Origin: an uncultured Candidatus Saccharibacteria bacterium
GTDB lineage: Bacteria > Patescibacteriota > Minisyncoccia > Phycocordibacterales > JAACPR01
NCBI GenBank assembly: GCA_964507955.1
Contig: CAZDRR010000001.1
Coordinates: 66,650 to 130,649, forward strand
DNA length: 64,000 nucleotides
Direction of reading: 5' to 3'
Under the pieces are notes generated by a model, which saw only the letters and a program-made list of their open reading frames with translations, was not told the origin of the DNA and ran no database searches. Positions within the stretch are counted from its first letter, which is position 1. Each line of letters begins with the position of its first letter. Made by a program: the position numbers and the translations under genes. Positions 19,611 to 62,352 of the stretch are shown here, one piece after another.

Positions 19611-19623
19611 ATTGAAAATTGTT

Positions 19624-19698: not shown

Positions 19699-19701
19699 AT
19701 T

Positions 19702-19773: not shown

Positions 19774-19779
19774 CCGTTA

Positions 19780-37075: not shown

Positions 37076-37718
37076 ATGCTCCTAGTTGTCTCCAGCCCCT
37101 ACGCCCATAAACCCAATCACAATTTTCATGAGATCCTTCTTCGCTTACAATGCGCCCGCAACCATCACACATTGAAGTTTTTGGTTTTCGCGGACGATAG
37201 TTGTGGAGCTTTGTCAAGAATTCTTTTACAGTTTCTTCGAAATTATCATTGGTAAAATTAACCCCGTAATAATCATCGACTTTCAAATAGCGTTCTTGAT
37301 ATGAACCATTGATGCCAATTAAAGAAGTTTTTGAGTAATTTTCCCGAGGCGGAAGATTATCAATCAGAACATTTTCTTGGCTTGCAATATCCAATGGATT
37401 GACGGCCCTGCCACCATAAGCCGTGCCAACATAAGCATTTTCAATATCTTCGCGGGCAATGATATGATCTGGCTCAAATTCCAAATCAGCCAAGCGATTG
37501 ACATTTGACGCATATTCCCGCGTTGAAGTTGTAAGAACATAAACATTGTCCTTGCCAACGAGTTGACGGCAGAATTCTACCAAAGTTTTCGCACAGGGGC
37601 GAATGATGGTATAATAATTATAACCCCCGATCCTAAACACAACATGTTCTTGATTCGGATTGTATAATTCTGTATGAATTAATGTGGAATCAAGATCCCA
37701 AAAGATTTTGTTTATCAT
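37065..37718 (-). CDS. HAD-superfamily phosphatase (nucleotidase / polynucleotide-phosphatase-like)
   Basis: DxDxT motif (DLDSTL) at the N-terminus and a C-terminal Cys cluster. Confidence 0.45.
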   Translation of the reverse strand: MINKIFWDLDSTLIHTELYNPNQEHVVFRIGGYNYYTIIRPCAKTLVEFCRQLVGKDNVYVLTTSTREYASNVNRLADLEFEPDHIIAREDIENAYVGTAYGGRAVNPLDIASQENVLIDNLPPRENYSKTSLIGINGSYQERYLKVDDYYGVNFTNDNFEETVKEFLTKLHNYRPRKPKTSMCDGCGRIVSEEGSHENCDWVYGRRGWRQLGAYDG

Positions 37719-40872: not shown

Positions 40873-41163
40873 TCATTCAATAGGCTCAACTTTGAAGGTT
40901 TTAATGGATTCGTTAATGATATCCGCCCAATTATTATGTTCTGCTACGATAGATTGAGCAGATGGAGAATTTTCTTTCATCCAGCGCATTGCTACCACTA
41001 AATGCTGCACTTGCGAAAATTGCAAGAGATTTCGAAAAATTTCATCTCTAACAAAAGAAATATGTAATTTTGGAAGATCCGTAGGAGAAATATTTTTATC
41101 CTCTTCGTCATCCCGATAATATTTTTCGGGGATATCCAACTCCATAGACAACTTCACTTTCAT
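40873..41163 (-). CDS. hypothetical protein
   Basis: A 96 aa ORF. Confidence 0.3.
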   Translation of the reverse strand: MKVKLSMELDIPEKYYRDDEEDKNISPTDLPKLHISFVRDEIFRNLLQFSQVQHLVVAMRWMKENSPSAQSIVAEHNNWADIINESIKTFKVEPIE

Positions 41164-41200
41164 ACCTCAAAGATAGCAAAAATTTACCCCAAGTCAAGAA

Positions 41201-43216: not shown

Positions 43217-44242
43217 TTATAGATGAATGATTTTGTTCTTGGTTTTTGGATCAACCGCCCACTTGTATTTCAAAGCAGCAACCGAAGTCAAAACATTAAT
43301 CTCACTTGGATACTTGGGCGAGAAAATATTTCTCACTTGTTTAACTGTGACGGTTTTGCATCCAGCCTTACGCTTTTTCTTCAAATAAGCGTCAATTCGC
43401 GATTCAAAAGCGGACAACTGTTTCACAGCTTTTTCGTTGCGTTTGAAGTTCTTTGTAGAACCCTTGAGGGGCTTGCCAGTAGCATTGGTAGCAACGCAAT
43501 TGACCTCTTGAGAGATTTCTTCAAGGACTTTATATGCGCAGCAACGAAGCTTACGACAATCGGAAGAAGGAACGCTGACCACATCTTTTGGATTGATTTT
43601 TACAGAGACAATCTTGCCTGCCGACCATCCTTTAGCGTAATCAAAGCTGCCAGCATGGACTCCAAACGAGCAATCGTTATTGCGATTGTCATCAACACAG
43701 TTGCGCTCGACTTCAATTTCTTCTCCAACGCCATTATAAATTTGGCCTTGAGCATTAACCTTGCCTTTTAAAACTTTTGTATTGAGATTTCCATGTTTAC
43801 TCCAGCCATTGGCTTGCAATCCACGGAAAGCAATGAAACATCCATCTTCCGTAATCGGAAGTTGCTTGTAAGACAAGAAATCATAAAGTTCCGCTACAGA
43901 AGAAGCAGAGGGATTCTGCTTGAGGTTTCTCCAGAAATTTAGGAACATGGAAATAGGCAGACCATTTTTCTTCAATTCCAAAATTGTCTTCGCCAAAGAT
44001 GCATGGACTTCCTCGCCGTCAATTTGAACCGAATTGTTCAAAAAGGTAAAGCCAAGCTTCTTTTCTTTTTCGATTTCCTTGGTATCTGCCGCCAGCAAAT
44101 CAAGAATTGCTTGTTCTTGCTTGTTTTCGGGCAAATTGAAAATCTGTTTGATTCGGGCAAATTCGACGGAATCATTGTCGAAATTATAATTCGCGCCATT
44201 AATGTAAAATGTTGCGCCTTTGTTTGTGAAGATGTATTTCAT
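43217..44242 (-). CDS. rIIB: rIIB-like protein
   Basis: A 341 aa ORF immediately downstream of the rIIA-like gene on the same strand. This is the size and position expected for rIIB. The call rests on synteny; no direct motif evidence. Confidence 0.4.
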   Translation of the reverse strand: MKYIFTNKGATFYINGANYNFDNDSVEFARIKQIFNLPENKQEQAILDLLAADTKEIEKEKKLGFTFLNNSVQIDGEEVHASLAKTILELKKNGLPISMFLNFWRNLKQNPSASSVAELYDFLSYKQLPITEDGCFIAFRGLQANGWSKHGNLNTKVLKGKVNAQGQIYNGVGEEIEVERNCVDDNRNNDCSFGVHAGSFDYAKGWSAGKIVSVKINPKDVVSVPSSDCRKLRCCAYKVLEEISQEVNCVATNATGKPLKGSTKNFKRNEKAVKQLSAFESRIDAYLKKKRKAGCKTVTVKQVRNIFSPKYPSEINVLTSVAALKYKWAVDPKTKNKIIHL

Positions 44243-44272
44243 ACCGATACTTTAATTGGTTTTGTGATTATG

Positions 44273-44482
44273 TCAACTATTAATTAGATTGATGGCATGT
44301 TTTTGTCCATCCAGAAAACCTTTTTGCCAAGAGACGAAACATTCGTAACCGTCTTTTCGCAATCCATCCGCAGCAATCCAATTCGTCCATGCTCTTTGGA
44401 TATATTCGTCGGGATGTATGGTAAAATTCACTTGTCCCAACAAATATCCATTTCTGTAATACTCTGATTTTGTTGTTTTCAT
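44273..44482 (-). CDS. small hypothetical protein
   Basis: A 69 aa ORF. Confidence 0.25.
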   Translation of the reverse strand: MKTTKSEYYRNGYLLGQVNFTIHPDEYIQRAWTNWIAADGLRKDGYECFVSWQKGFLDGQKHAINLINS

Positions 44483-47301: not shown

Positions 47302-47525
47302 TCGCTCAACGTCATTTCAACAACAGGCTTATCAACGGCAGGAGTTTCAGCGGGAGCATCAGCAACCACTGTTGGAACAGCGCCATTTTGTTTTGCCAGC
47401 CAAACTCGCCCTACAGGAACAACTGTATTAGGAGAAAATTTGGAGGCCAATTCTTCAACTGTCATGTTTATGAAACTAACGGCACCAGTTGGGCGTCCGC
47501 GAGTTTTTGTATTTGTAGTATTCAT
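47298..47525 (-). CDS. hypothetical protein
   Basis: A 75 aa ORF. Confidence 0.25.
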   Translation of the reverse strand: MNTTNTKTRGRPTGAVSFINMTVEELASKFSPNTVVPVGRVWLAKQNGAVPTVVADAPAETPAVDKPVVEMTLSE

Positions 47526-47561
47526 GTTTTTATGATACGGGTTTTAATAGAAATGTCAAGA

Positions 47562-47910: not shown

Positions 47911-48537
47911 TTAGTCTATATACACTCTCAAATCTCCCAAATTGAAAGATTTGTTTTGGATGTTTTCCAAAAATTGTTTGCAGGCGCGATTGATATTGTA
48001 TCCTTTGTTCGAATATTTCACCAAACGTTTCATTGTCGCTACAGGAAAAGAAACATCATGAATGGACAAATATTTTGTCTTTACGTCTCGCGCAAATTGT
48101 AAGGGAATATAAATAAATTCCCCATCAAAAGCACATCGTCCTGCATTAATGTCAAATTGATTAATTACTTCGTCTGGAGTCCCAGCCGTTTCAAGAATTA
48201 ATTGAACCTTCATTTCCCCCTTTTTATAAGTGAATAGTTTGCCTTCGGGGCATTCAAAAATAAGATCAAAATTTTCTTTTTCAAGAATCTCCCTGACTTC
48301 AATTACTCTAGCGGGAAGAACAGGCTGAAAAACATCCTGATCGACAGGTTGATACATTAATTGCCCATTAAAAAACAAATCAAAATCACAGACTTCTTCA
48401 TCATTAATCAGGGTCCTTAAAGAACCTCCCGCGAGAAAACAACCATTACCCAATACCCCCAAAACCCACAACGGAGCGATTTTTGAGAATCTTGACTTGC
48501 GGATATGTGTCGCAGGAATTTTAAAAATTTTAGACAT
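47911..48537 (-). CDS. nucleotidyltransferase of the Pol-beta superfamily (CCA-adding / tRNA-NTase head-domain-like)
   Basis: FLAGGSLRTLINDEEVCDFDLFF matches the GGxVRD...DxD signature. Confidence 0.4.
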   Translation of the reverse strand: MSKIFKIPATHIRKSRFSKIAPLWVLGVLGNGCFLAGGSLRTLINDEEVCDFDLFFNGQLMYQPVDQDVFQPVLPARVIEVREILEKENFDLIFECPEGKLFTYKKGEMKVQLILETAGTPDEVINQFDINAGRCAFDGEFIYIPLQFARDVKTKYLSIHDVSFPVATMKRLVKYSNKGYNINRACKQFLENIQNKSFNLGDLRVYID

Positions 48538-48591
48538 TTTGACAGTATTTGTTTCTGTTTCCCATCAATTTTTTGTTGTGTAACCTTTTAT

Positions 48592-49320
48592 ATGAAAAAG
48601 TGTTCGTGTTGTCAAGAAGAAAAAAATATTGAAGAATTTTATAAACAAAAAACTTCAAAAGATGGTTTGATGAGTATTTGTAAAAAATGTAGCCGAATTA
48701 AATCGAAAAAATATCATCAAGAAAACAAAGAATTAATTCGTAAAAACAAAAAAGAATATCGACAAAAGAAAATTGACGAAATTAAAACAAAAGATAAAAT
48801 CCGCCATCAATTAAAACGAGAAGTAAAAATTGAAAAATATTTTCAAAATAGGGAGGAAATTTTAATTAAAAAACGGGCGAATTATCATTCTGCGAAAGAA
48901 CATCATAGAGAACTCGCTAGAAAAAGATACCACAGAAGAAAATTAAACAATCCACAAGGAATAATTAAAACAAGGAAGGATTTTTATTTGAGACATAAAG
49001 ACGAACCAGAATATAAACTTATGAAATCAATTCGTTGGGGATTAGCAAGAATATCTAAAAATTTAAAAAAGAATAAAAAACTTCGGTCTATAGAATATTT
49101 AGGATGTTCTCTTGAAGAATTCAAGGAATATATAGAAAAACTTTGGGAAGAAGGAATGTCTTGGGAAAATTATGGATTATACGGTTGGCATATTGACCAT
49201 ATAATTCCTTTAGATTGGTTTTTAAAAAATGATCAAAACCCTTGGAAAGCAAATCATTATACAAATTTGCAACCTATGTGGGCGAAAGAAAATTTATCCA
49301 AAGGTAATAAATTTGATTAA
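48592..49320 (+). CDS. HNH homing endonuclease, zinc-ribbon plus GWHIDHI family (paralogue A)
   Basis: Start taken at MKKCSCCQ. The C-terminus (LGCSLEEFKEYIEKLWEEGMSWENYGLYGWHIDHIIPL...NLQPMWAKENLSKGNKF) is paralogous to the 50280..50930 gene. Confidence 0.55.
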   Translation: MKKCSCCQEEKNIEEFYKQKTSKDGLMSICKKCSRIKSKKYHQENKELIRKNKKEYRQKKIDEIKTKDKIRHQLKREVKIEKYFQNREEILIKKRANYHSAKEHHRELARKRYHRRKLNNPQGIIKTRKDFYLRHKDEPEYKLMKSIRWGLARISKNLKKNKKLRSIEYLGCSLEEFKEYIEKLWEEGMSWENYGLYGWHIDHIIPLDWFLKNDQNPWKANHYTNLQPMWAKENLSKGNKFD

Positions 49321-50279: not shown

Positions 50280-50930
50280 TTAATCTAAGTCAAGATCTTT
50301 TTCATCAAATTTCGCTCCTTTTCGAATATTTTCTGCCCACCATAAAGGTTGAAGGTTTGTGTAATGGAAACATTTTTTTTGTTCTTCTAAATCTAAAAGA
50401 TTAAAAGCTGCGCACGGCTTGATATGGTCAATATGCCAACCGAATTTGCCATAATTTTCCCATGTCATACCTTCCTGAAAAAGAGATTCTAAATAAATTT
50501 TTAATTCTTCAAGAGAACATCCTAATAGTTCAAGTGTTGACTGAGATTTGTATTCCTTAATAATGGTGTTATATAATCGGCATCTTAAACTATTTATTAT
50601 ACGATATAGAGAATCTTCTTTTCTTTTTCTAGCGCGGTAAGCGTGCTTTGTCAACAAAAATTTTTCAGGATTTTTTTCTTTCCATTTTTTATTATAAATA
50701 CGCCTTTCTTCTCTTCGTTTAATTCTTTGTAGTCGATGATAGTCGGGATTCTTTGCCAACCAATTTTCAGTCATTTCTTTACAACAAGATTTGCAAGAAT
50801 TTTTGTTTTTAGAAAAATCTGCTAAATTTAAAATTTTTTCACATCGAGAACATTTTTTTAATCCTTGTTCTTTTAATTCTTGAATTATTTTGCGCGACAG
50901 AGGGCTTTTTCGTGATTTTTTCTCGCTCAT
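50280..50930 (-). CDS. HNH homing endonuclease, zinc-ribbon plus GWHIDHI family (paralogue B)
   Basis: CSRCEKILNLADFSKNKNSCKSCC...LGCSLEELKIYLESLFQEGMTWENYGKFGWHIDHIKP...NLQPLWWAENIRKGAKF. Confidence 0.55.
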   Translation of the reverse strand: MSEKKSRKSPLSRKIIQELKEQGLKKCSRCEKILNLADFSKNKNSCKSCCKEMTENWLAKNPDYHRLQRIKRREERRIYNKKWKEKNPEKFLLTKHAYRARKRKEDSLYRIINSLRCRLYNTIIKEYKSQSTLELLGCSLEELKIYLESLFQEGMTWENYGKFGWHIDHIKPCAAFNLLDLEEQKKCFHYTNLQPLWWAENIRKGAKFDEKDLDLD

Positions 50931-51198
50931 GTTTATTTTTACACCGAAAAGAAGGATTTACCTTCTCGGAGAGGGAAAATCTTTAATTTTGCTGTTGACA
51001 TTGGGGGGAAATCGGGTATTTTGAGGGCATGAACGATTGGTCCTACTTTCCGAACGATGACGGTTTATACAAAGATATTTTTAGAAATTATAAGCCTCTC
51101 AAACTTAAAATTTTTGAAGGAGATTTTGGCAAAAATCAGCGCCAACGTCGAAAAAATGCCCGTCGTCGTTTCGCGGCAGGCTGCAAGAAGGTTTTTGC

Positions 51199-51435
51199 AT
51201 GAAACTTTGTATTCCATACTCTAAATCTGTCGTTCACTTTCCTTTAGATAAGGATTTGCCACTTGATGAACAAGTTTGCCATTACGATTTCCAAGCAGAA
51301 GTCGAGGCTATTTACCCCAAAAAAAACAAAGTAGTTTTATCGTTCAAAAACGAAATGAACAAGAAAGAAAAAATAGAAATCTCTTTTGATCAATTTTCTA
51401 AATACTTCAATATAGAAAAAAAAGAATATGTGTGA
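51199..51435 (+). CDS. hypothetical protein
   Basis: A 78 aa ORF, first gene of the + strand small-gene cluster. Confidence 0.3.
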   Translation: MKLCIPYSKSVVHFPLDKDLPLDEQVCHYDFQAEVEAIYPKKNKVVLSFKNEMNKKEKIEISFDQFSKYFNIEKKEYV

Positions 51436-51904
51436 CTTCATTTTAAAAAGAAACATTCCCCAATCCAAAATTCCCAAGCTTGTTTACAAACGTGTTCAAA
51501 AAGTGGGGCCAAACAATTATATTTCTCCAGTTATGGGGGAACCTATCCCGTTTGATAGATGGGTAAAAGCCCCTGATCTTAAAAAGAAATTTAATAGAAA
51601 ATCTTTTGGATGGCAAAGTCTGGTAAAATTTATAAAGCGGAAATACCCCAAAAAAGGATGGGCTAATTCTTCGGCCTACACTTCAAAACATGTAGGAAAA
51701 TGGGGAGTTTTTAAATATAAAAAGGATGCTATTGCTGCGGACTTGACTAGTAATTTTGAAAATCCAAAAACATTCAAGATATTTCCTACTGTAATTGTAA
51801 AATGCGAAATTAAAGGTTCTGTTGATGAAGGGAGTTATAATGGATTCCCAACATACTTAGCTTCACATCTGAAAATCGTAGCCGAAGTCGGCAAAGCATC
51901 ATGA
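51428..51904 (+). CDS. hypothetical protein
   Basis: A 158 aa ORF whose start overlaps the upstream stop. Confidence 0.35.
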   Translation: MCDFILKRNIPQSKIPKLVYKRVQKVGPNNYISPVMGEPIPFDRWVKAPDLKKKFNRKSFGWQSLVKFIKRKYPKKGWANSSAYTSKHVGKWGVFKYKKDAIAADLTSNFENPKTFKIFPTVIVKCEIKGSVDEGSYNGFPTYLASHLKIVAEVGKAS

Positions 51905-52110
51905 AACAGACTTTCGCAGAGTGGGCTTTTGAGCGAATTAACAAAGGATATTCACTTTATTCCATCAAAGGCCCTCCTCCATATCCAATGTTTGACTCAG
52001 ATGGATTTCCCGTCAAGAAAATCAATTTAAAATGGGTTTGCAAAGAAACTCAGGAAGAATTTTTAATGGAATATCCAAAAAGTCTTGACGAACCCGAGAT
52101 AAAAGCTTAG
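51901..52110 (+). CDS. hypothetical protein
   Basis: A 69 aa ORF with an ATGA start/stop overlap. Confidence 0.3.
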   Translation: MKQTFAEWAFERINKGYSLYSIKGPPPYPMFDSDGFPVKKINLKWVCKETQEEFLMEYPKSLDEPEIKA

Positions 52111-52118
52111 AAGTATGC

Positions 52119-52469
52119 ATGTCAATTAATGAAGCTATCGACTTGCTGAGACGAAAGGGAATCAGAGTTTTCCGCATTAATAGAACTCAATTTAAAGTCC
52201 GTGATATGAGCGGAGAATATTGGGAAAATTATTATGGAAGTTATTTTTTTCGCAAAACGCGAGAGTTTTGGGCAGGTAGAGATATTATCAAACTCGCTCA
52301 ATCTTATACCGATAGCACTCAACAAACATGCTTGCATAGAAACGTCAAACAATCTTCAAGATCAAAAAATCGTCCTGCGACTCGCGATGCGATTCGAACA
52401 GGAGAATTCGACAAAATTCCAGACAAAAATCGTCCTGTAAAGCGGGGGAACCCGTGGGATTGGGACTAA
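52119..52469 (+). CDS. hypothetical basic protein
   Basis: A 116 aa ORF. Confidence 0.3.
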   Translation: MSINEAIDLLRRKGIRVFRINRTQFKVRDMSGEYWENYYGSYFFRKTREFWAGRDIIKLAQSYTDSTQQTCLHRNVKQSSRSKNRPATRDAIRTGEFDKIPDKNRPVKRGNPWDWD

Positions 52470-52481
52470 AAAATAAACAAT

Positions 52482-52922
52482 ATGCCATATCATCCAGACT
52501 TTAAAAACTCTCACGGGGAGGGAATTGACCTTCATGTTCTTGTTTTTACCCGCCCGAATCTTCGTAGCGACGAATATCAAGTTTACATGGGTAAATCTAT
52601 TATCGAAAACCTTTTCGATAAAGTGCAAGTAGATGAGAAGACAAAGGAAATTTTCTTGCAATATCCTGAGCGTTGGTGCAATATTCTGGAACAAAGAAAA
52701 ATTCTCCATAGAATCACCCTTCTTTATCCGAATATTCAAAAAGTAACAATTGTAACTCACTCCGTTTACATTATTCAATGCACTCATCATGAACAAATTG
52801 GAATTTGCGATCAGGATTTGCAAAAAGAATATTTTGAAATGATGGATAAGGATGATACATTGGAGACAAGATACTGTCCTCCATTTAAAGAAAACGCAGG
52901 GCTACAAATTTTTACAGCATGA
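52482..52922 (+). CDS. hypothetical protein
   Basis: A 146 aa ORF. Confidence 0.3.
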   Translation: MPYHPDFKNSHGEGIDLHVLVFTRPNLRSDEYQVYMGKSIIENLFDKVQVDEKTKEIFLQYPERWCNILEQRKILHRITLLYPNIQKVTIVTHSVYIIQCTHHEQIGICDQDLQKEYFEMMDKDDTLETRYCPPFKENAGLQIFTA

Positions 52923-53419
52923 AACACGTTATTAATCTACCCCGAGTAGCCGTAAGGAATTGGGCTATTGATGCCCCAAAAAATACAATTTGGATTTCTA
53001 TTTCAGAACCAGATTCATTAAATTCCGTAGTATCTAATGAAGAATTGGATAAATTACCAAAATTATCTTTGAGTTTTTGGGATTTGACAAGTCCAGCAGA
53101 ACATAACGGGGAAATGCTTTATCCTCCAAGCGATTCCGTTGCTAAAACAATAGTGGACTTCATTCTTTCTCATCCTGATCAAAATATTTTAGTTAATTGC
53201 GCTGCGGGAGTTTCGCGTAGTGGGGCTGTAGCTCAATTCTGCGAAGACTTTTTGGGGTATCATTGGCTCGCACAAGGAAAACAGTGTGCTATGCCAAATC
53301 ATGTCCTTTACGGGCTAATGCGCGATTACTACAAGTCAACCGAAAGAATTGAAAAGCACAGTAAAACCGTGAAGTCGGCTTATGAGATTGCTTTGGATAA
53401 AATTCAAGAGAAGTCTTGA
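52919..53419 (+). CDS. protein tyrosine / dual-specificity phosphatase
   Basis: CX5R P-loop VNCAAGVSRSG. Confidence 0.5.
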   Translation: MKHVINLPRVAVRNWAIDAPKNTIWISISEPDSLNSVVSNEELDKLPKLSLSFWDLTSPAEHNGEMLYPPSDSVAKTIVDFILSHPDQNILVNCAAGVSRSGAVAQFCEDFLGYHWLAQGKQCAMPNHVLYGLMRDYYKSTERIEKHSKTVKSAYEIALDKIQEKS

Positions 53420-53449
53420 CATAGGGGATTTTTAAATCATAATGCGCTC

Positions 53450-54124
53450 ATGCAAATTGACCCCACAAAGATCACGAACTTTAACCGCACAGATTCGGAG
53501 CTTCAAGCTTTTTGGATTTTTGGATGCATTGTTGCTGGCAAAAATTCCGATTATGCCGCCAAGGTTCTTGCTCGATTATTGAATCGTTGCGACACCACAC
53601 CGTTTGAATATTTTCGTGATCTTGGAGAAGCAGGTATTCGTAATGCTTTGGTGGCCGCACGTTCTGGCAATTATACCAGAATCACTCGTTTTATTGTAGA
53701 ATCGCTGGATTTGGATTTGCGAACAGCGTCCAAGGATCAATTGATGAAGGTTTTTGGTGTTGGCCCCAAGACTGTGAGAATGTTTCTTCTCCATACTCGT
53801 CCGAATGTTGAGTGTGCGGTTCTGGATACTCATATTCTTAAATATCTGGCAGAAAAGAAACAATGCGTTCCTTCTCAAACTCCCTCTAGTTTAAAGCAAT
53901 ACGATGAACTGGAAAAGGACTTTCTATATTATGCGAAAGTAGATTTCCCTTTTATGTCCATCGCTGATATTGATTTGATGCTTTGGATGAAATATAGTGG
54001 GCGTTTGGATAATGATATTGTCGAGCCTGAGCTTCCTGCCTCTTCTGCTTTAACATTGGAGGATGTATCGAACAGCATATCAAGATATTGTAGAAAAATT
54101 ATTGAATTTGGAAAGACAACTTGA
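53450..54124 (+). CDS. HhH-GPD base-excision DNA glycosylase (endonuclease III-like)
   Basis: Helix-hairpin-helix VFGVGPKTVRMFL, followed by the catalytic-Asp region AVLDTHILKYL. Preceded by TTGACA-N17-CATAAT. Confidence 0.5.
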   Translation: MQIDPTKITNFNRTDSELQAFWIFGCIVAGKNSDYAAKVLARLLNRCDTTPFEYFRDLGEAGIRNALVAARSGNYTRITRFIVESLDLDLRTASKDQLMKVFGVGPKTVRMFLLHTRPNVECAVLDTHILKYLAEKKQCVPSQTPSSLKQYDELEKDFLYYAKVDFPFMSIADIDLMLWMKYSGRLDNDIVEPELPASSALTLEDVSNSISRYCRKIIEFGKTT

Positions 54125-54504
54125 CGAATAAAATGAACGATCCACTTTTAGAGCTTGAAGAAAAAACCGTTTTTAAATTTTTCGGAGAAACAAAATTAAC
54201 TTGCCGACATGAAGATTACTCTCATTATGTCTCGGATGATTATTCAATTTCTGCCAACCAATTCGCAGATCAAATTCTTTTTTCTGTAGATTTGAATTCC
54301 TGCTTTAATAAGGACAGTCAATGTCCGATTCACTTTGTCGTTTCCCTATATGAACCTATGAGCAGAAGAAAGGAAAAGCGCATTTTCGAAGCTTTGAATT
54401 TTTTGAAGAGGAATGAAAAAAAGGCTGGACATTTCTTGGGGGAAATGCAAGGATTTGACGATCTGAGCGGCAGTGTAAGAACCGCTTTCTACAAACAACA
54501 ATAA
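54121..54504 (+). CDS. hypothetical protein
   Basis: A 127 aa ORF. Confidence 0.3.
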   Translation: MTNKMNDPLLELEEKTVFKFFGETKLTCRHEDYSHYVSDDYSISANQFADQILFSVDLNSCFNKDSQCPIHFVVSLYEPMSRRKEKRIFEALNFLKRNEKKAGHFLGEMQGFDDLSGSVRTAFYKQQ

Positions 54505-54509
54505 AACAA

Positions 54510-54818
54510 ATGAGAACACGAAAGACATACTTGAGAAATCCGTTTACCAACAAACCGTTTGGTGTTGCGGTCTTGATTAACAACAATGGAGATTATCGTT
54601 TTGGTTACTCTCTCTGTAACCCGAATGACCAATTCGACAAAAAGAGGGGAACAAAAATTGCTTTGGGCAGGGCAAACTGCACGAAGTTTGGCGAGGATCA
54701 GGTGATTCTTCCAGTCGTTCCTCTGCGCCGTATGGTGATTGTCGATACATTCAGGCAATTGGTTCATGACGAAGATGCTTATTGCCAACGTCAAGCTCAA
54801 GCGGGAGTTCCCGCGTAA
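54510..54818 (+). CDS. hypothetical protein
   Basis: A 102 aa ORF. Confidence 0.3.
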   Translation: MRTRKTYLRNPFTNKPFGVAVLINNNGDYRFGYSLCNPNDQFDKKRGTKIALGRANCTKFGEDQVILPVVPLRRMVIVDTFRQLVHDEDAYCQRQAQAGVPA

Positions 54819-54866
54819 AGCCCCAAACATTCTGGTGCGGGGAAACCCGCGCCAGAATACGCTGTT

Positions 54867-55091
54867 ATGAACTGGATTAAATCACACAAATATCTTATCA
54901 GTTTTTGGATAGGTTATCTATTCATTCTTTTTGGATTTTTTCTTGCTGTGCCTAGTTGGGAATTTTTGAAATATCCACCGACATATATTCTAATAGGCAT
55001 AGCAATTATTTTTACGACTTTTGCGATTTGGTTTGATAAGCCTATGGATAGAGGCATAGATAGAATGGATAATCACGATGATTACTATTAA
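54867..55091 (+). CDS. small membrane protein
   Basis: A 74 aa ORF with two hydrophobic helices. Confidence 0.3.
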   Translation: MNWIKSHKYLISFWIGYLFILFGFFLAVPSWEFLKYPPTYILIGIAIIFTTFAIWFDKPMDRGIDRMDNHDDYY

Positions 55092-55551
55092 AGGAAATAT
55101 TTTTGACGGCACTTGGGATGTATTCATGCATTGCTGCAATACGGAATGCACTTGGGGAGCGGGTATTGTAGTCCCACTCAAAAAGCTTTATCCACAAGCC
55201 TACAAAGCGGACAAAACAACAGAATCAATGGGCGAAGACAAATTAGCCCTTTATTCTTATGCCGACGTAAATAACCAAAGAATTTATAATCTTTATGCCC
55301 AAGTTGGCATTGGGAACGACGGTCAACCTTTGAATAGAAATCTACAGTATGATTATCTTTATGATTCTATGTTTAGGGCATTGTTTCATCTCTCGCAGAC
55401 CAAAAATTTGCCAAAAGATCGAAAACTTGTGGTTGCGACTCCGCTCATTGGTGGAGGACTGGCGGGCGGATCACGGGAAATCATCATTGCCATTATGAAT
55501 GACGTTTTCAAGCATTATCCACAATTCGAACATCATCTATACGAACTATGA
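55078..55551 (+). CDS. macro-domain-like protein (putative ADP-ribose-binding / hydrolase)
   Basis: ITIKGNIFDG...VFMHCCNTECTWGAGIV resembles the macro-domain N-terminal Gly-rich pocket. Confidence 0.3.
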   Translation: MITIKGNIFDGTWDVFMHCCNTECTWGAGIVVPLKKLYPQAYKADKTTESMGEDKLALYSYADVNNQRIYNLYAQVGIGNDGQPLNRNLQYDYLYDSMFRALFHLSQTKNLPKDRKLVVATPLIGGGLAGGSREIIIAIMNDVFKHYPQFEHHLYEL

Positions 55552-55748
55552 AATTCAAACTTTTAGAAGATTATCTTAGTCTCGCAGAAGGGACTATCGT
55601 TTACGAATACAATGGTCCGACTTACGGAATGATTGAAGACGATAGTTGCATTTTGCAAGAGGAATGCGTTGCAGTAACGGAAAAAAAAGGAAAGACTCCC
55701 TTTGTTATTATCCCTCTTTCCAAGCTTGAATTTTTAGAAAATTCTTGA
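55548..55748 (+). CDS. hypothetical protein
   Basis: A 66 aa ORF. Confidence 0.25.
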   Translation: MKFKLLEDYLSLAEGTIVYEYNGPTYGMIEDDSCILQEECVAVTEKKGKTPFVIIPLSKLEFLENS

Positions 55749-55754
55749 CTCTTA

Positions 55755-55979
55755 GTGGGAAATTGCTATGGTTCCTACATGAATGAACGCTTTGAAGAAA
55801 CTCCAACATCCGTAATTTTCAAACGAACGAACAAAATTTTCCATAGAAGTTTCATCCGCACTTATCAAATGAGGACAATTCCTGAAATCCGTCGCAAAGC
55901 GTCGAAATTTTGGGGTAATGCCCAACAAGACGAAATTATCCACTATTTGAAAGAAAAAGGTCTGACAATTCAAAATTAA
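55755..55979 (+). CDS. hypothetical protein
   Basis: A 74 aa ORF. Confidence 0.25.
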   Translation: MGNCYGSYMNERFEETPTSVIFKRTNKIFHRSFIRTYQMRTIPEIRRKASKFWGNAQQDEIIHYLKEKGLTIQN

Positions 55980-55984
55980 TAAAT

Positions 55985-56410
55985 ATGAACAAAGAAGAAC
56001 TAATGACTAAAGTTGTTGAATGGACTGGCGAAACCGCCGAAAAGATTGGTGATTTTGCCGCAAAGGAAATCCCCCCATTCATTCATGAATATCTCCAGTG
56101 GAAGTTTTGGGAAAATGCTATTGGGGTTGGGTTTTACTTGATTCTTATTCCCATTTTTATTGCTGCGGTCATTGGACTTTACAAAGCAATTCAAACAATG
56201 TGGAAGAAAAAAAAGGAAAATCCATATAGCGATTGGGAAGTTCCTGCAACGTTATTGACTATTTTTGGGGGTATAGGTGCTATAGGACTGTTTATTATTG
56301 GGATTAGCAACTTCCCAACTGATAAAATTCTTGACTGTGTTCAAATCAAACTTGCACCGAAAGTCTATTTGATTCAACAAGCTTCTGAAATCATTAAAGA
56401 AAACAAGTAA
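55985..56410 (+). CDS. membrane protein
   Basis: A 141 aa ORF with two long hydrophobic segments. Confidence 0.3.
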   Translation: MNKEELMTKVVEWTGETAEKIGDFAAKEIPPFIHEYLQWKFWENAIGVGFYLILIPIFIAAVIGLYKAIQTMWKKKKENPYSDWEVPATLLTIFGGIGAIGLFIIGISNFPTDKILDCVQIKLAPKVYLIQQASEIIKENK

Positions 56411-56541
56411 TTATGACATGGTATGAAAAGAACCAAACATCCAGAAGATTTAGGGAAGTCGTGGGACCACTTATCGGTAAACATTCAAGATATTTTTTCC
56501 AATAACGAAGGATCAGAAAAAGAACTATTCACAAAAATATC

Positions 56542-56886
56542 ATGATTGACTTAAATAAAAAATACAAAACAAGAGATGGGCTCAAGGTTGAATTGCTTGG
56601 GTTCTCAAAGGATGAGGTTTATCCCTTGATGGGTTCTATTGAAATAGATGGAAAGTGGTATAATAAAACATGGACTAAGGAAGGTAAAATATTTATTGGG
56701 GAGAATTTTGCTACTGATCTTGTCGAAATCCCAAAGGATAAAAGAGTTGAATTAGACGGAACCAACAAAGCTTTTATTTATCAAGATGGAAGTATGAATA
56801 TTAGCGAAGGAGAGCTTATTGTTGCTTCTATTTCTCGCGATTCTATGAAGAGGTTGATGCAAGCTTACAAGGAAATGATGGAATGA
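56542..56886 (+). CDS. hypothetical protein
   Basis: A 114 aa ORF. Confidence 0.3.
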   Translation: MIDLNKKYKTRDGLKVELLGFSKDEVYPLMGSIEIDGKWYNKTWTKEGKIFIGENFATDLVEIPKDKRVELDGTNKAFIYQDGSMNISEGELIVASISRDSMKRLMQAYKEMME

Positions 56887-57323
56887 AAGTTAAATGTATT
56901 TCAAAAAATTATTCGCTTATTAAGCATGGTGAAGTTTTTGAAGTAAAATTTGAAGGGGAAGATTATTACGATATTATCTCCCCATATGGCACATTAGTGT
57001 ATAAAAAAGTTAATTTTGAAATTGTTATGACTCCAAAAGAAAAACTGCAAGAAGCGCAAAATACTTTAGAGAACCTTCGACAAGAATGCGAAAAGCTATC
57101 CAAGGAAATCTCTGTTTTAAAACAAGAAATTAAAGATTCCGCCAGTCCTGAAATGGGGGATCGTTATGTCAAAACTGGTGGTTGCGAATATATCGTTGCT
57201 CGATTAGATTCAGATTTGTATGCGCTCATCAATCTTCAAGATGGAAATCGTTGGTCAAATCCAACAAGTAATATTTTGGATATTTTTGCAGGATCAGAGA
57301 AGCAATTTAAAAAGAAAATTTGA
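56883..57323 (+). CDS. hypothetical protein
   Basis: A 146 aa ORF. Confidence 0.3.
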   Translation: MKVKCISKNYSLIKHGEVFEVKFEGEDYYDIISPYGTLVYKKVNFEIVMTPKEKLQEAQNTLENLRQECEKLSKEISVLKQEIKDSASPEMGDRYVKTGGCEYIVARLDSDLYALINLQDGNRWSNPTSNILDIFAGSEKQFKKKI

Positions 57324-57326
57324 TTT

Positions 57327-57563
57327 ATGGACAAACTATCAAAGTTAGGCAAACTCCAGCATAAATTCTACAATAGTGGAATGCTGGGGAATCCTATAAT
57401 TTCAGATAAAGAATTAAATTCTCTGTCCCAACAGTTGGGCGAACTTTCTTTGTATTTTAAAGACAGGCACGATTCAACCATCGCGTCTGTCTTACGCATC
57501 GAACAAGAATCCGTAGAGCGAATGATTACCGCTAGAGAAACAGCAAAGGTAATGCAATTTTGA
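57327..57563 (+). CDS. hypothetical protein
   Basis: A 78 aa ORF. Confidence 0.25.
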   Translation: MDKLSKLGKLQHKFYNSGMLGNPIISDKELNSLSQQLGELSLYFKDRHDSTIASVLRIEQESVERMITARETAKVMQF

Positions 57564-57599
57564 GAGAATAGGATAATTTGATAATAAATTATCATTCTT

Positions 57600-58540
57600 T
57601 TCATTTCTTTGTTTGGGACTAATTAATAATAGGTTGTTTTAAAATATAACCCACCCCGCGCAACCCTCTCGACAAACTTTAGAAAACTGTTTCAAATAAG
57701 GTCTTTACAGGCGAAAACATAGAGGTAAAATAACTATACGATTAGTATGGTTAAATTGCCTCAAACGCTTACGGCAGTAGGCGAAAACCTCCACCTACAC
57801 AACCCATGGACCAGACAAATAACGAAGTAATAACAGGAATACTGATAATGATAAGCATATTGGATTGGTTGGTAAGGAGTAGGGGATAGGGGAGGAATGA
57901 TGGTTCTGCCCGCCCCTCTAAATAATAAATAATTATCACCAAAAAGATGATTTTTCGAGGCCAAAAAGATGATTTTACCAAAACCCCCTACTCCCACAAT
58001 GATTCCAGCGCACCCAATCTAACAGCAAAATCCAACTCTAACAGAAAAATTTTGTTAGAAGGGTGAAATTGGGACTGTTGAAATTGCTTAAAATCGCTTC
58101 AATTTGATTAAAAAAGGGCGCAAATAATGATAATTAGCCCCAAAAGTTCTTTCAATTTTTGCGTAATAAACAAAACGACGAAAAGCGAGGAATAAATCGC
58201 TCGCTAAAAAAGGAATTTGTAGTTGTTTTTTGCTACTTTGGGAGGTAAAAAGAGGATTTCAGCCTTTCAGTTAGTGTTATCCAACCAGAATCAGCGATGT
58301 TTTGCGGTTTTCCTTAATCCCCGTTTTTAAGACTTAATCGTAATAAAAACATTCTAAAGCTCCGAAAATTTTTGTTTGTTTTAGAATGGATTTCTGGTAA
58401 TCCGTATGCCGTAAGTTGCCCCACACATTCAACGTTTATCTAAAACAGCAAAGAATAATCTTCACTCAGGGTATATTACACACAGCCCCAAAAACAGTCC
58501 AAAAAAATCTTGACTTCCGCGCCAAATAATATAGATTACC
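57600..58540. promoter_or_regulatory. about 0.95 kb non-coding region with short direct repeats and AT tracts (candidate origin / regulatory hub)
   Basis: Three direct repeats are present: CCAAAAAGATGATTTT x2 (57939 and 57962), TCTAACAG x2 (58018 and 58036) and GGCGAAAAC x2 (57701 and 57780). There are no credible ORFs. It ends with TTGACT at 58511. Confidence 0.35.
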
Positions 58541-58543
58541 CGT

Positions 58544-58864
58544 ATGGAAACAAATAATGAAACCCCTTCCAAACCCAAGGAAGAAACAATCGCCTCTCGT
58601 TCTCTTAGCCCCGAAGAAGCACTCAAGGTTTTGGAGGTATTGAAAAAGAAAGTCTCCGCTCCTGCTCCTCCCACACGTTCGGAAATCATTACTTCTATTT
58701 TGAATGATTTTATTGGATATGGTATTACCGTGTTGTTGTTGACAATGTGTTGGGATTATGGTCTTGCAAGGGTGTTCCCAGCAGTGCCAAATATTACAGT
58801 CATTCAAATGGCTATGGTTTGGTATTTGTGGAGTGGATTTGCATCCAAGTTAAAAAAATCTTGA
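58544..58864 (+). CDS. hypothetical protein with C-terminal transmembrane helices
   Basis: A 106 aa ORF. Confidence 0.3.
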   Translation: METNNETPSKPKEETIASRSLSPEEALKVLEVLKKKVSAPAPPTRSEIITSILNDFIGYGITVLLLTMCWDYGLARVFPAVPNITVIQMAMVWYLWSGFASKLKKS

Positions 58865-58896
58865 CACGGCCCCGAAAACCCATTAATATTTCCCCG
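58862..58896 (+). promoter_or_regulatory. sigma70-like promoter
   Basis: TTGACA-N17-TAATAT, immediately upstream of the 58899 ORF. Confidence 0.45.
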
Positions 58897-58898
58897 AC

Positions 58899-59168
58899 AT
58901 GAAACCTCTACTTTTTGCCAAATCACTAATTAATAACCAATTGGAAACCCTGTCCAACGCAGAAGGAAATATTGTTTTTATTCTTTCTCGGGGCAATCAA
59001 AGCGGGTCCAACCGAAGGAATGATAATGCTCCATGGCGTTTGTTTGCCAAGGATCAAAAGTATCTTCATACAGAAACTTTCAGAGCAGTATTGTATTCTT
59101 TTGTTGAAACTGAATTCGGATATAAGGTGAAGGATGATTTGAAATATCCTTCTTTGGAAGATCTGTAA
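58899..59168 (+). CDS. hypothetical protein
   Basis: An 89 aa ORF. Confidence 0.3.
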   Translation: MKPLLFAKSLINNQLETLSNAEGNIVFILSRGNQSGSNRRNDNAPWRLFAKDQKYLHTETFRAVLYSFVETEFGYKVKDDLKYPSLEDL

Positions 59169-59197
59169 AACGAATCTAAATAAACACAAATAAACAA

Positions 59198-59446
59198 ATG
59201 ATCACTAAAGCCACACTTAAAGCCCACAAGACTCCAGATAATAACAGTATTATTTATGTGCAGGTCCCTTGGAATAAGACAAGCCTTGCTTCTGTTTACA
59301 ATGCCGTTGATGATGCGTTGGAGGAAAGTCTTCGGGGCCAATTGCCTATTGTGGATTACTCACCTTCTTCTTATGACTCCAATAGCCACGAAATTGAATT
59401 GATGGTTATCTTGGATGTGGAAGATGTTGATTTCGAGGAAGAATAA
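59198..59446 (+). CDS. hypothetical acidic protein
   Basis: An 82 aa ORF. Confidence 0.3.
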   Translation: MITKATLKAHKTPDNNSIIYVQVPWNKTSLASVYNAVDDALEESLRGQLPIVDYSPSSYDSNSHEIELMVILDVEDVDFEEE

Positions 59447-59465: not shown

Positions 59466-59545
59466 GGGGGTGTATCTCAACGGTCTTCTAAGCCGTGATA
59501 GAGTAATGGAATCAAATGCAGGTTCGAATCCTGTCTCCCCCACCA
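59466..59545 (+). tRNA. atypical tRNA-like gene (anticodon arm ACGGT-CTTCTAA-GCCGT, anticodon TCT; reduced D region and long extra arm)
   Basis: Acceptor GGGGGTG/CTCCCCC, then A, then CCA. T-arm GCAGG-TTCGAAT-CCTGT. Only 7 nt separate the acceptor from the anticodon stem, and 21 nt separate the anticodon stem from the T-stem. Confidence 0.35.
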
Positions 59546-59550
59546 AAAAT

Positions 59551-59635
59551 GGCTTCTTGGCGGAATTGGCAGACGCTACTGGTTTAAGCCCAGTTGCCCT
59601 CGGGTGTGAGAGTTCGAATCTCTCAGGAGCCACCA
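59551..59635 (+). tRNA. tRNA-Leu (anticodon TAA), type II
   Basis: Acceptor GGCTTCT/AGGAGCC; anticodon stem ACTGG/CCAGT with loop TTTAAGC; variable-arm hairpin; T-arm GAGAG-TTCGAAT-CTCTC; CCA encoded. Confidence 0.6.
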
Positions 59636-60069
59636 TTTTTTAAACTACTTTTACGCCTTCTCCATGTAGGAGTAAGACCATGGCAATTACAACAAAGAAG
59701 TTTTAAATTGTCTAAATTATTATTTGTCCTATCACCATCAATGTGTTCTATTTCTAATGGAATAGGTTCATTTTGCCAGTCTCCTAATCCACAATTTTCA
59801 CAATAATGCCCTCTTAATTTAATAAGATGTGGTTTCAAGTTATTTCCTCTTGTATATTGACTCCAATCTTTTAATTGTTGATTTTTACTCCAGCCACATC
59901 CTGCCCAATGGTCACAAGATAAATTTAGCCTTTGCAAATTTTTTTTCATATTAGCGAAATTTCCACCAGCTTGTTTTAAACCGAGTTCGCGTAATAAAGC
60001 CCCCATAGAAGAAACTTCTTTTGATTTGTCGATAATATCTTGATCTGTATAGTTTCTATATTGTCCCAT
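59623..60069 (-). CDS. HNH endonuclease
   Basis: CENCGLGDWQNEPIPLEIEHIDGDRTNNNLDNLKLLCCNCH. The 3' end overlaps the tRNA-Leu by about 13 nt. Confidence 0.55.
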   Translation of the reverse strand: MGQYRNYTDQDIIDKSKEVSSMGALLRELGLKQAGGNFANMKKNLQRLNLSCDHWAGCGWSKNQQLKDWSQYTRGNNLKPHLIKLRGHYCENCGLGDWQNEPIPLEIEHIDGDRTNNNLDNLKLLCCNCHGLTPTWRRRKSSLKNGGS

Positions 60070-61281: not shown

Positions 61282-61983
61282 TTATTGCACCCCCTCGACT
61301 ACAAAGCCCGAATGGTCCTTGCGGGCTTTACCCTTTTGAACCAATCCCACAACAACACCCTTGTCATCCAGAAACCGCAAGTCACTTTCATCGCCATTCA
61401 CAACGGGAAAGCCTTGCCATGTTTCAGGCAACTTGCCACGGAAAACAACCGCAACATTTCCTTGACTTTTAAGAAAGGGGATACAAAGGTCTCCATTTTC
61501 TTCACTACGGGAAAAGGTCAAATGATAATTGGAAGGGAATTTGCCATCCAAAAAATCACTCATCCGATCAGGGTTTTTGGTATAATCGTAAAACTGGACG
61601 TTAGGGAAACGATTGACAATTGAAATCCCATCATGCCCGATATTTTCCCAAGGCAAGTCGCTGGTAAGATTCAAACGAAAACAAGGGGTGAGATTGGCTT
61701 TTTCAGCTTTTCGGATAGCGGCCAAAATTTCCTTTTCCAACTCTTGCGCAAATGCGTTTTTGTTTTCAAAAAACTTACGTGTTTTGGCGATACGGGCATT
61801 CTGGACTCGCGAGTAAGCACCGCGCCCAGCCGTATTCAAACAAGCTGCCGCGCATCCCTGACTGGCAAATTGGCAAACGTTATAGCCCGACAAATCAAAC
61901 GGAGCAAGGTGTAAACCTGCGGTGAGGAAACCCATTTTTTCCCCTTTTTGAATTTTGGTATTGGAGTAGGTGAGCAAAGACAT
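61282..61983 (-). CDS. conserved phage hypothetical protein (GC-rich; N-terminal KGxKxGFLTAGLHLAP...SG.NVC...GC...CLNTAGRG motif)
   Basis: A 233 aa ORF at about 48% GC. The opposite-strand ORFs across this span were rejected as antisense artefacts of the high GC content. Confidence 0.4.
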   Translation of the reverse strand: MSLLTYSNTKIQKGEKMGFLTAGLHLAPFDLSGYNVCQFASQGCAAACLNTAGRGAYSRVQNARIAKTRKFFENKNAFAQELEKEILAAIRKAEKANLTPCFRLNLTSDLPWENIGHDGISIVNRFPNVQFYDYTKNPDRMSDFLDGKFPSNYHLTFSRSEENGDLCIPFLKSQGNVAVVFRGKLPETWQGFPVVNGDESDLRFLDDKGVVVGLVQKGKARKDHSGFVVEGVQ

Positions 61984-62013
61984 GCGGGTAGAATAGCTTG
62001 GATTTAAAATTTG

Positions 62014-62352
62014 TCAAACACTTTGTCTATTTATTTGCGGAGTTGCATCCTCCACTTTAATCCAGAAAGAATCGTTAATTTTTAAATGTTGTTTTAAAAA
62101 TTCATTTTCCTGACTGCAAATTTCAAATTTTTCTTTTAAATGTGGGAAAAAGACTGAATGCTTCGCGTTAAAGATTCCTTTAATCCATCCTTTCTTTTTA
62201 GGATTTCTGGTAGAAAAGGAAACATTGATTTGCAGAGGAAAATAATCTATGGGTTTTATTCCAAGAGCGAGGCCGACAAACTTAAAGCAAAGTCCGAAAG
62301 GTCCGTTTAAATAAAAACTATACGCTTTTTTCAATGTCTTAGTGGTTTTCAT
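62014..62352 (-). CDS. hypothetical protein
   Basis: A 112 aa ORF. Confidence 0.3.
   Translation of the reverse strand: MKTTKTLKKAYSFYLNGPFGLCFKFVGLALGIKPIDYFPLQINVSFSTRNPKKKGWIKGIFNAKHSVFFPHLKEKFEICSQENEFLKQHLKINDSFWIKVEDATPQINRQSV

Follow-up and report, generated by a model that had tools for sequence, protein, structure and literature searches.

Two classes of phage enzyme are directed against DNA ADP-ribosylation by DarT toxins, macrodomain proteins against the DarT2 type and NADAR proteins against the DarT1 type. Transposon sequencing and a clean deletion showed that tk.4, since renamed adfM, protects phage T4 from DarTG2, and T4 carries both AdfM and the NADAR protein AdfN (10.1101/2025.11.20.689424). 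In vitro, the PhiKZ macrodomain gp104 strips from DNA the ADP-ribose that DarT2 has attached, and an N23A mutation impairs it (PMC13309987). NADAR proteins of phages (AdfN), among them those of T5 relatives, undo the DarT1 modification and counter DarTG1 (PMC11825919). Here we describe a stretch of 64,000 nucleotides (the window; contig CAZDRR010000001.1) which, as judged from marker genes and tRNAs, is part of the genome of an uncultured large lytic-type phage and which encodes enzymes of both classes. The macrodomain gene lies in a compact array of small genes at 51029-57563 on the + strand, together with genes for a Cys phosphatase and a DNA glycosylase. We consider it rather probable that this array is an accessory gene block of a large, tRNA-rich phage encoding rIIA and rIIB, that the block is expressed early, and that its enzymes act as proposed below.

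The array is an uninterrupted + strand series of 19 open reading frames (ORFs) of 40-224 amino acids (aa). They are listed here with identities and collinearity relative to a related contig, L008:

51029-51202, +, ORF of 57 aa, Arg-rich at its C-terminus, opens the array, ATGA overlap with the next gene
51199-51435, +, ORF of 78 aa
51428-51904, +, ORF of 158 aa
51901-52110, +, ORF of 69 aa
52119-52469, +, ORF of 116 aa
52482-52922, +, ORF of 146 aa with motifs TRPNLR, YPERW and THSVYIIQC
52919-53419, +, dual-specificity-type Cys phosphatase, 166 aa
53450-54124, +, Ogg2-like HhH-GPD DNA glycosylase/apurinic-apyrimidinic (AP) lyase, 224 aa
54133-54504, +, ORF of 123 aa (127 aa from TTG 54121)
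54510-54818, +, ORF of 102 aa, 47% identity and collinear in L008
54867-55091, +, ORF of 74 aa, two membrane-spanning segments suggested by the sequence, called as a gene on L004
55078-55551, +, macrodomain protein, 157 aa
55548-55748, +, ORF of 66 aa
55779-55979, +, ORF of 66 aa
55985-56410, +, ORF of 141 aa, membrane protein, phrog_3054
56423-56545, +, ORF of 40 aa, coding status uncertain
56542-56886, +, ORF of 114 aa, 37% identity and collinear in L008
56883-57323, +, ORF of 146 aa with central coiled coil
57327-57563, +, ORF of 78 aa, last gene of the array

The initial annotation had recognised the uninterrupted + strand arrangement but placed its start at 51199 with 17 genes; the series begins at 51029, and counted from 51199 it holds 18 ORFs. 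The frequent ATGA start/stop overlaps that it described are present at six junctions (51199, 51901, 52919, 55548, 56542 and 56883). Two further junctions overlap by 8 and 14 bases, and the remaining gaps measure 3-48 bases. Independent gene calls on two metagenome contigs of identical sequence give the same gene set, with a preference for ATG 54133 over TTG 54121 and for ATG 55779 over GTG 55755. For 15 of the 19 ORFs there is no functional evidence. Besides the three enzymes, matches to PHROG families of unknown function are all that was obtained for four ORFs and the others have no match; the first ORF has none in Pfam, PHROG or PADLOC. We regard these 15 ORFs as lineage-specific small proteins. 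Their complement changes from one related phage to another, a typical feature of accessory or counter-defence regions.

The protein encoded at 55078-55551 is a macrodomain of the subgroup that comprises T4 Tk.4 (AdfM), BT1257 and SCO6735. Pfam gave no match, phrog_335 matched with an E-value of 6.4e-34, and the single sequence found the solved macrodomain BT1257 at 1e-5. With a profile of 21 homologues, the matches to solved structures were BT1257 (4.5e-14), SCO6735 of Streptomyces (9e-9), TARG1 (1.7e-7) and DarG (8e-6). The AlphaFold2 model (predicted local distance difference test score, pLDDT, 91.7; predicted template modelling score, pTM, 0.88) has the three-layer α/β/α macro fold, and Foldseek aligned it to TARG1 (8e-11, TM-score 0.77-0.88) and DarG (3e-8), and also to BT1257 and Poa1p. 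The ADP-ribose-binding loops are formed by N21...G27-A-G29 and P122..G125-G-G-L-A-G-G131, and N21, G27, G29, P122, G127 and G131 are invariant across the 21 members of the family.

The relationship to T4 Tk.4 is visible at the sequence level (BLASTP, 30% identity over 129 residues, E 6e-11). A tblastn search found relatives in 1,811 phage records; among the matches listed, many adjoin vs, the gene for the valyl-tRNA synthetase modifier and neighbour of T4 tk.4, or fall on genes annotated as tk.4. Both Tk.4 and the window macrodomain are stand-alone proteins of about 155 aa belonging to phrog_335. In both, Gln and not Lys follows the NLY(A/T)Q strand and the GxG..G loop is rich in Gly, and both are encoded among small genes of unknown function, with a NADAR gene elsewhere in the genome. 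The comparison with PhiKZ gp104, the AdfM of a chimallivirus and DarG2-like, is more distant. The macro fold is common to both, and hhalign aligned the two at 96% probability over 144 columns with the invariant N21 of the window protein on N23, mutation of which reduces the activity of the PhiKZ enzyme. However, PhiKZ AdfM keeps the lysine of the DarG-type FPTK motif where the window protein has Q75/V76 (aligned with the T-K pair), and the two proteins are only 17% identical. AdfM of PhiKZ undergoes import into a phage nucleus, whereas nothing points to such a nucleus here.

In view of these precedents, the window macrodomain would most likely strip ADP-ribose from phage DNA that has been modified by a DarT2-like host toxin, and thereby restore replication. 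The initial annotation had suggested that a macro domain could reverse ADP-ribosylation-based immunity. This proposal now has direct precedent in T4 Tk.4 and PhiKZ AdfM, and for the present protein an anti-DarT2 role is inferred by homology to them. Several observations speak against such a role. The catalytic Lys of DarG and TARG1 is missing, with Q75 aligned on Lys84 of TARG1, and A129 occupies the position of TARG1 Asp125. The window protein is also far more distant from DarG than Tk.4 is, as the PADLOC DarG model shows (E 0.013 as compared to 1.3e-9 for T4 Tk.4). SCO6735, one of its closest solved relatives, is a hydrolase of Glu-linked ADP-ribose on proteins. Gln at the position of the catalytic Lys is found in T4 Tk.4, BT1257 and SCO6735 as well. 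Because the catalytic Lys and Asp are replaced and the Gln is common to Tk.4, the protein was assigned to a Tk.4/AdfM-type subgroup and not to the DarG/TARG1 type.

The same residues bear on the possibility that the macrodomain reverses ADP-ribosylation of proteins, either by undoing the effect of host toxins on proteins or RNA or by tuning ADP-ribosyltransferases of the phage itself. Such a function would agree with BT1257 and SCO6735 being the closest solved relatives by profile and with the Gln that the window protein likewise carries in place of the TARG1/DarG Lys. Yet T4 Tk.4 has this same Gln and still protects against DarT2, which modifies DNA, and no ADP-ribosyltransferase was seen in the window. 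We consider a protein substrate very unlikely. Soluble ADP-ribose derivatives would be another type of substrate, including ADP-ribose-1''-phosphate from tRNA repair of the Tpt1/KptA type, O-acetyl-ADP-ribose, and immune signals derived from ADP-ribose. The macro family is traditionally annotated as 'phosphatase / Appr-1-p processing', and both Foldseek and sequence searches retrieved Poa1p, an ADP-ribose-1''-phosphate phosphatase. The phage has more than 22 tRNAs, in a second related locus (L010) an RNA ligase is encoded 4 kb from the macro gene, and a role in soluble ADP-ribose metabolism has been proposed for Macro and NADAR domains of jumbo phages (PMC7824862). On the other hand, RNA ligase, Tpt1 and polynucleotide kinase were not found among the scanned ORFs of the window, which covers part of the genome, and protection against DarTG2 is the only experimental phenotype of the Tk.4 type. 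Action on soluble derivatives is judged unlikely, and removal of ADP-ribose from DNA is preferred.

The best contextual support for this counter-defence function of the macrodomain is the co-occurrence of macro and NADAR proteins, as in T4. The NADAR protein is encoded 24 kb outside the array:

27015-27773, -, DUF4326-NADAR fusion of 252 aa with N-terminal DUF4326

Both domains score above their curated cut-offs (NADAR PF08719, 57.6 bits compared to 35.1; DUF4326, 39.7 bits), and YbiA was found in the Protein Data Bank (PDB) at 7e-4. The NADAR part is about 38% identical over about 110 residues to NADAR genes of Escherichia and Salmonella phages of about 110-118 kb, one of which is annotated as 'antitoxin-like enzyme'. 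The NADAR domain is what the window protein has in common with the phage NADARs of the AdfN type, from which it differs by the DUF4326 fusion. It would remove guanine-linked ADP-ribose made by DarT1-type toxins. The phage thus encodes both enzyme classes that act against DarT2- and DarT1-type DNA ADP-ribosylation. The occurrence of a Tk.4/AdfM and NADAR pair, known experimentally from T4, in a very distant uncultured phage suggests that large phages are widely under pressure from DarT-like DNA ADP-ribosylation.

The gene at 53450-54124 encodes an Ogg2-like HhH-GPD glycosylase/AP lyase. Its Pfam matches are both below the cut-offs (HHH, 6.9e-5; Ogg-HhH, 3.7e-4), phrog_11575 matched at E 1e-46, and the 8-oxoguanine glycosylase/AP lyase of PDB entry 9o00 was retrieved at 2e-6. 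In the alignment with 9o00, GVGPK107 falls on the catalytic-Lys motif GLGMK and LD126TH on the catalytic Asp, so that the protein has the helix-hairpin-helix (HhH) with a Gly/Pro-rich loop, the catalytic Lys and the downstream Asp by which the Ogg2 subgroup is defined. Homologues with 42-44% identity occur in 30 records of phiCbK-like Caulobacter phages and in one Erythrobacter phage, and K107 and D126 are invariant between the window protein, phiCbK gp186 and the Erythrobacter phage homologue. A C-terminal extension of about 40 aa is absent from these homologues. Archaeal-type Ogg2 enzymes (PDB 9o00, 3fhf, 3knt) and phrog_11575 have in common the G(V/L)G-x-K motif of the HhH, the catalytic Lys and a downstream Asp. 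However, the window protein scores far below the NCBIfam equivalog cut-off (NF002305, 29.6 bits compared to 183) and is not an equivalog of Ogg at this level. As a bifunctional glycosylase/AP lyase with Lys107 as the nucleophile and Asp126 as the second catalytic residue, it would act on damaged bases in phage DNA and remove them, oxidised purines being the most likely substrate. No characterised phage member of the phrog_11575-type glycosylases was found in the literature, and this well-populated family, which includes the proteins of the phiCbK-like phages, is a target for biochemical work.

The initial annotation had taken the whole array as typical of early host-takeover and anti-defence regions. 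The glycosylase gene looks more like one for DNA repair than for host takeover, and base-excision repair of the phage genome is the most economical explanation of its presence. A similar explanation might be extended to the entire block, which would then be devoted mainly to DNA repair and housekeeping, with the glycosylase repairing oxidative lesions and the macrodomain as a lesion-reversal enzyme or acting on ADP-ribose metabolites. Both would be kept on account of the environmental damage to free phage particles and to replicating genomes. The neighbourhoods of related genes agree with this. The glycosylase homologue of the Erythrobacter phage directly follows DNA polymerase I, and that of phiCbK lies near rIIA/rIIB and a helicase. 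L008 is collinear with the array for the phosphatase, 102-aa, macro and 114-aa genes and has no Ogg2-like gene; instead, the same block encodes a DenV-like pyrimidine-dimer glycosylase (L008 4455-5039; 28.1 bits compared to a curated cut-off of 23). In L010 the macro gene adjoins UvdE (L010 9006-9968), with ThyX also beside it. The occurrence of different repair genes in or near the equivalent block of L008 and L010 suggests cassette-like exchange of repair enzymes. Against a pure repair function stand the defence-specific phenotype of the T4 homologue of the macrodomain and the NADAR protein of the same phage, phage NADARs being enzymes that counter DarT1. A block that serves mainly repair is therefore considered somewhat unlikely. 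Repair and anti-defence are compatible, as removal of ADP-ribose from DNA is itself DNA repair. A gene of 174 aa that follows the phosphatase gene in L008 was considered as a possible diverged glycosylase and is not one.

The third recognisable enzyme, at 52919-53419, is a divergent Cys phosphatase of the dual-specificity phosphatase (DUSP) fold. Its P-loop reads N93-C94-AAGVS-R100-S, with C94-AAGVS-R100 invariant in 34 sequences. D55 in the motif FWD is also invariant and is a putative general acid, following strand 48-52 in the model, and a downstream Pro-Asn (PN) motif is conserved in the family. The family profile matches DUSP14, 18, 21, 16 and 22, DUSP14 best at 5e-5, and in the profile alignments the P-loop CAAGVSRS is identical to those of DUSP14 and DUSP18. 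Of the PDB fold matches listed by Foldseek for the model (pLDDT 95.3), all 50 belong to the protein tyrosine phosphatase/DUSP superfamily. The best matches overall are proteins of jumbo phages resembling dual-specificity phosphatases (DSPs) in BFVD (E 1e-8, TM-score 0.65-0.68). DSP-like proteins of this kind occur in the jumbo phages 201phi2-1, Phabio, Psa21, PA5oct/MIJ3 and RP12, and the 201phi2-1 match and the MIJ3 homologue carry a virion annotation. A match to PF00782 is precomputed for 12 of the 37 homologues listed; the single sequence reached DSPc in Pfam with E 3.8e-4 over 22 residues, at 20.7 bits below the gathering cut-off of 33.5. Relatives in genome collections are about 30% identical and occur in metagenome-assembled genomes of Lentisphaeria, Victivallis and Melainabacteria, which does not point to a particular host. 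Compared to the atypical DUSPs (DUSP14/18/21/22), the P-loop, the PN motif and the fold with its upstream Asp are the same, whereas the window protein has Asn before the Cys.

As read from the motif, the P-loop is of the protein-phosphatase type and not of the RNA-triphosphatase or lipid-phosphatase type. This minimal enzyme, with Cys94 and Arg100 in the P-loop and Asp55 as the acid, would most likely dephosphorylate a phosphoprotein of the host or of the phage. A target in host signalling, as put forward in the initial annotation, is suggested solely by the type of P-loop and by the virion annotation in jumbo phages. Less favourable to the proposed phosphatase function are the modest Foldseek scores against PDB entries (best E 5.6e-4, TM-score about 0.45-0.59) and the residue that precedes the catalytic Cys, which is Asn and not the usual His. 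We found no experimental work on phage DSPs in the literature, and the phrog_5614 DUSP-like phosphatases form another well-populated uncharacterised phage family for biochemical study.

Taken together, the three domain assignments of the initial annotation are borne out: profile, model and fold matches agree on a CX5R tyrosine/dual-specificity phosphatase; phrog_11575, PDB 9o00 and the catalytic residues on an HhH-GPD glycosylase; and phrog_335, profiles, model and Foldseek on a macrodomain. These enzymes add new members to known families and do not overturn current understanding. Folds and motifs are shown by the models and alignments, while the activities would follow from them; the substrates assigned to the phosphatase and the glycosylase are the less secure part of the overall interpretation. 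More speculatively, phosphatase, glycosylase and macrodomain could act together to rid phage DNA of ADP-ribosylated bases.

The ORF at 52482-52922, which is coupled to the phosphatase gene by an ATGA overlap, was considered separately. Its family, which at 50% identity comprises at least 134 clusters, is made up of stand-alone proteins of about 145 aa (range 50-234 aa) on large viral-type contigs, in which the motifs TRPNLR, YPERW and THSVYIIQC are invariant. Local matches to 11 PADLOC ATPase models (nine PtuA, AriA and one other; best PtuA E 6.7e-5), the invariance of an H-loop-like THS across more than 130 family clusters, and the coupling to the phosphatase gene raised the idea that the protein originated as the C-terminal half of an ABC ATPase of the PtuA/AriA type and serves as a decoy, which would poison Septu-, PARIS- or Gabija-like defence ATPases. 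The PtuA/AriA match spans only about 40 residues, however, and the family profile retrieved an AAA ATPase and PtuA from the PDB at E 0.17 and 0.83, respectively. None of 33 family members has a Pfam match. Walker A is missing and YPE stands at the Walker-B-like position instead of DE, so that only the H-loop-like THS agrees. A profile search of 1.84 billion proteins gave 134 hits, all short (50-234 aa) and none a full-length ATPase, and linkage to defence-related or phosphatase genes is not conserved. With a match that is local only, no ATPase among the 134 hits and no conserved linkage, the decoy was rejected as unsupported and is regarded as most improbable.

The most interesting by-product of the analysis is a predicted leaderless promoter architecture. 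Three promoters are placed in the array:

50995-51022, +, promoter P1, TTGACA-N16-TATTTT, 6 bases before ATG 51029, predicted leaderless
53416-53443, +, promoter P2, TTGACA-N16-CATAAT, 11 of 12 consensus matches, 6 bases before ATG 53450, predicted leaderless
55745-55772, +, promoter P3, TTGACT-N16-TATGGT, 6 bases before ATG 55779, predicted leaderless

A further site lies 3' of the array:

58861-58889, +, TTGACA-N17-TAATAT

The initial annotation had listed consensus promoters at 53417 and 58862, both with N17 spacers. Both sites exist, at 53416 and 58861, but the spacer of the first is N16 and the second lies outside the array. On the bare consensus alone these promoters are not beyond chance: a plain sigma-70 scan gave 42 sites where 30.8 +/- 5.1 were expected, a weak enrichment, and a second plain search gave none (8 sites, 6.9 expected). 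In contrast, the class with a fixed distance to an ATG is strongly enriched. The extended pattern TTGAC-N17-19-ANNNT-N5-9-ATG occurs 20 times as compared to 3.3 +/- 1.8 in shuffled sequences, a number reached in none of 100 shuffles. Thirteen sites have the ATG exactly 6 bases from the -10 hexamer (0.76 expected; maximum of 4 in 200 shuffles). This corresponds to a 6-fold enrichment overall and 17-fold at the exact spacing. The class consensus is TTGAC-N16/17-TAnnnT-N6-ATG, and 12 of the 13 exact-spacing ATGs open ORFs of 57-341 aa, among them rIIB (44242), the first gene of the array (51029), the glycosylase (53450), and the ORFs at 55779 and 58544. The genes for rIIA and the RuvB-like protein have the same promoter at a spacing of 7. 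Examples of complete promoter-plus-start sites are:

50995-51031, +, promoter plus start
53416-53452, +, promoter plus start
55745-55781, +, promoter plus start
58510-58546, +, promoter plus start
44240-44276, -, promoter plus start
41161-41197, -, promoter plus start
47523-47559, -, promoter plus start
61981-62017, -, promoter plus start

The same architecture was found 12 times in L008, a 20-kb locus, as compared to 0.2 expected, including sites directly at the macro and DenV-like genes. In L010 the motif precedes the macro gene at a spacing of 7. In both loci the macro gene has its own promoter, whereas its counterpart in the window comes fifth in an operon. High-GC control loci of the phiCbK type gave no site at spacing 6 and one at 7.

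Transcription by bacterial RNA polymerase normally begins six bases downstream of the -10 hexamer. An ATG at this distance puts the predicted +1 on the A of the codon, and the transcripts from P1, P2 and P3 are predicted to be leaderless. The position of P3 six bases upstream also favours ATG 55779 over GTG 55755 as a start. Transcription of the block is most likely carried out by the host RNA polymerase with a sigma-70-type factor and would yield three leaderless polycistronic mRNAs covering 51029-53419 (P1), 53450-55748 (P2) and 55779-57563 (P3). The internal genes, as read from the sequence, are essentially without Shine-Dalgarno sequences and are often coupled through the ATGA overlaps. 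In T4, rIIA and rIIB are early genes. As the promoters are of the host type and the same class precedes rIIA and rIIB, early expression of the block is plausible. Both this timing and the leaderless starts are deduced from sequence features, which counts against the overall interpretation of the block.

More tentatively, the phage and L008 may share a lineage-wide leaderless early regulon, with dozens of genes starting six bases after a sigma-70 -10 hexamer and with early and counter-defence proteins made by leaderless, Shine-Dalgarno-independent initiation. Its members would include the anti-DarT-type macrodomain, DNA glycosylases, rIIA, rIIB and the RuvB-like ATPase. Such a regulon, if real, could be an adaptation to unusual translation initiation in the host or an escape from host shut-off of canonical initiation. 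From the conserved order of -10 hexamer, six bases and ATG follows a prediction that can be tested directly, namely that leaderless early expression is systematic in a phage lineage of low GC content.

On its 5' side the array is preceded by - strand genes, an HNH endonuclease and the RuvB-like AAA+ protein. Directly 3' of the last gene, at about 57572-57600, there is a weak AT-rich hairpin with a T-rich stretch, which is not significant (z = -0.76), and terminator-like sites are not enriched (8 as compared to 8.5 expected). A gap of 980 bp without a convincing ORF (57564-58543) then separates two gene-dense + strand blocks. The gap matches no Rfam family, resembles neither the related loci nor any other part of the window, and has short repeats only, such as a 16-nt direct repeat at 57939 and 57961. 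Related loci have many small ORFs at the equivalent place. The + strand continues with three small genes and two tRNAs:

58510-59446, +, continued gene block with ORFs 58544-58864, 58899-59168 and 59198-59446 and predicted leaderless promoters at 58510 and 58861
59466-59542, +, tRNA, found by Rfam only
59551-59635, +, tRNA-Leu(UAA), paired with the preceding tRNA

The ORFs at 58899-59168 and 59198-59446 are collinear with L008.

Three metagenome runs yielded proteins identical to those of the array, and such proteins also occur on a 138,977-bp contig, the longest on record. A megablast search of the array against 50,697 phage records gave no match, so that it has no DNA-level relative among these sequenced phages, and when the glycosylase and the macro protein were used as single queries against IMG/VR, no relatives were found. 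Homologues of both rIIA and rIIB are encoded in the window; rIIA is less than 30% identical to that of any isolate and, like the RuvB-like protein, has only remote relatives among isolates. A tail-fibre protein, a lysozyme, ThyX and an HD protein are encoded as well. ARAGORN predicts 22 tRNA genes in the window and Rfam adds a few more, most of them in one array:

14095-23956, -, tRNA array, 21 genes by ARAGORN
16848, 17282, 18075, 21269, 22281 and 23883, additional tRNA matches in this array found by Rfam only

Within the tRNA array and adjoining a tRNA-Gly, Rfam also reports an abiF RNA at 19867-19903 on the - strand (39.5 bits; gathering cut-off 37).

The density of homing-endonuclease-like genes is unusually high, with at least seven of them, of the NUMOD3, LAGLIDADG and, in several cases, HNH types:

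1194-1862, homing-endonuclease-like gene
18539-19138, homing-endonuclease-like gene
25964-26533, homing-endonuclease-like gene
37748-38725, homing-endonuclease-like gene
48505-49320, homing-endonuclease-like gene
50280-50930, homing-endonuclease-like gene
59623-60069, homing-endonuclease-like gene

The last three flank the array of small genes. The translations of 48505-49320 and 50280-50930 have Cys-rich N-terminal parts and WHIDHI motifs in common.

A cluster for nucleotide metabolism is found on the - strand at 24513-25789, 28341-28877 and 37065-37718. Its genes encode an HD-domain protein with ThyX immediately after it, a protein resembling nucleoside 2-deoxyribosyltransferases, and a phosphatase of the NIF/HAD type.

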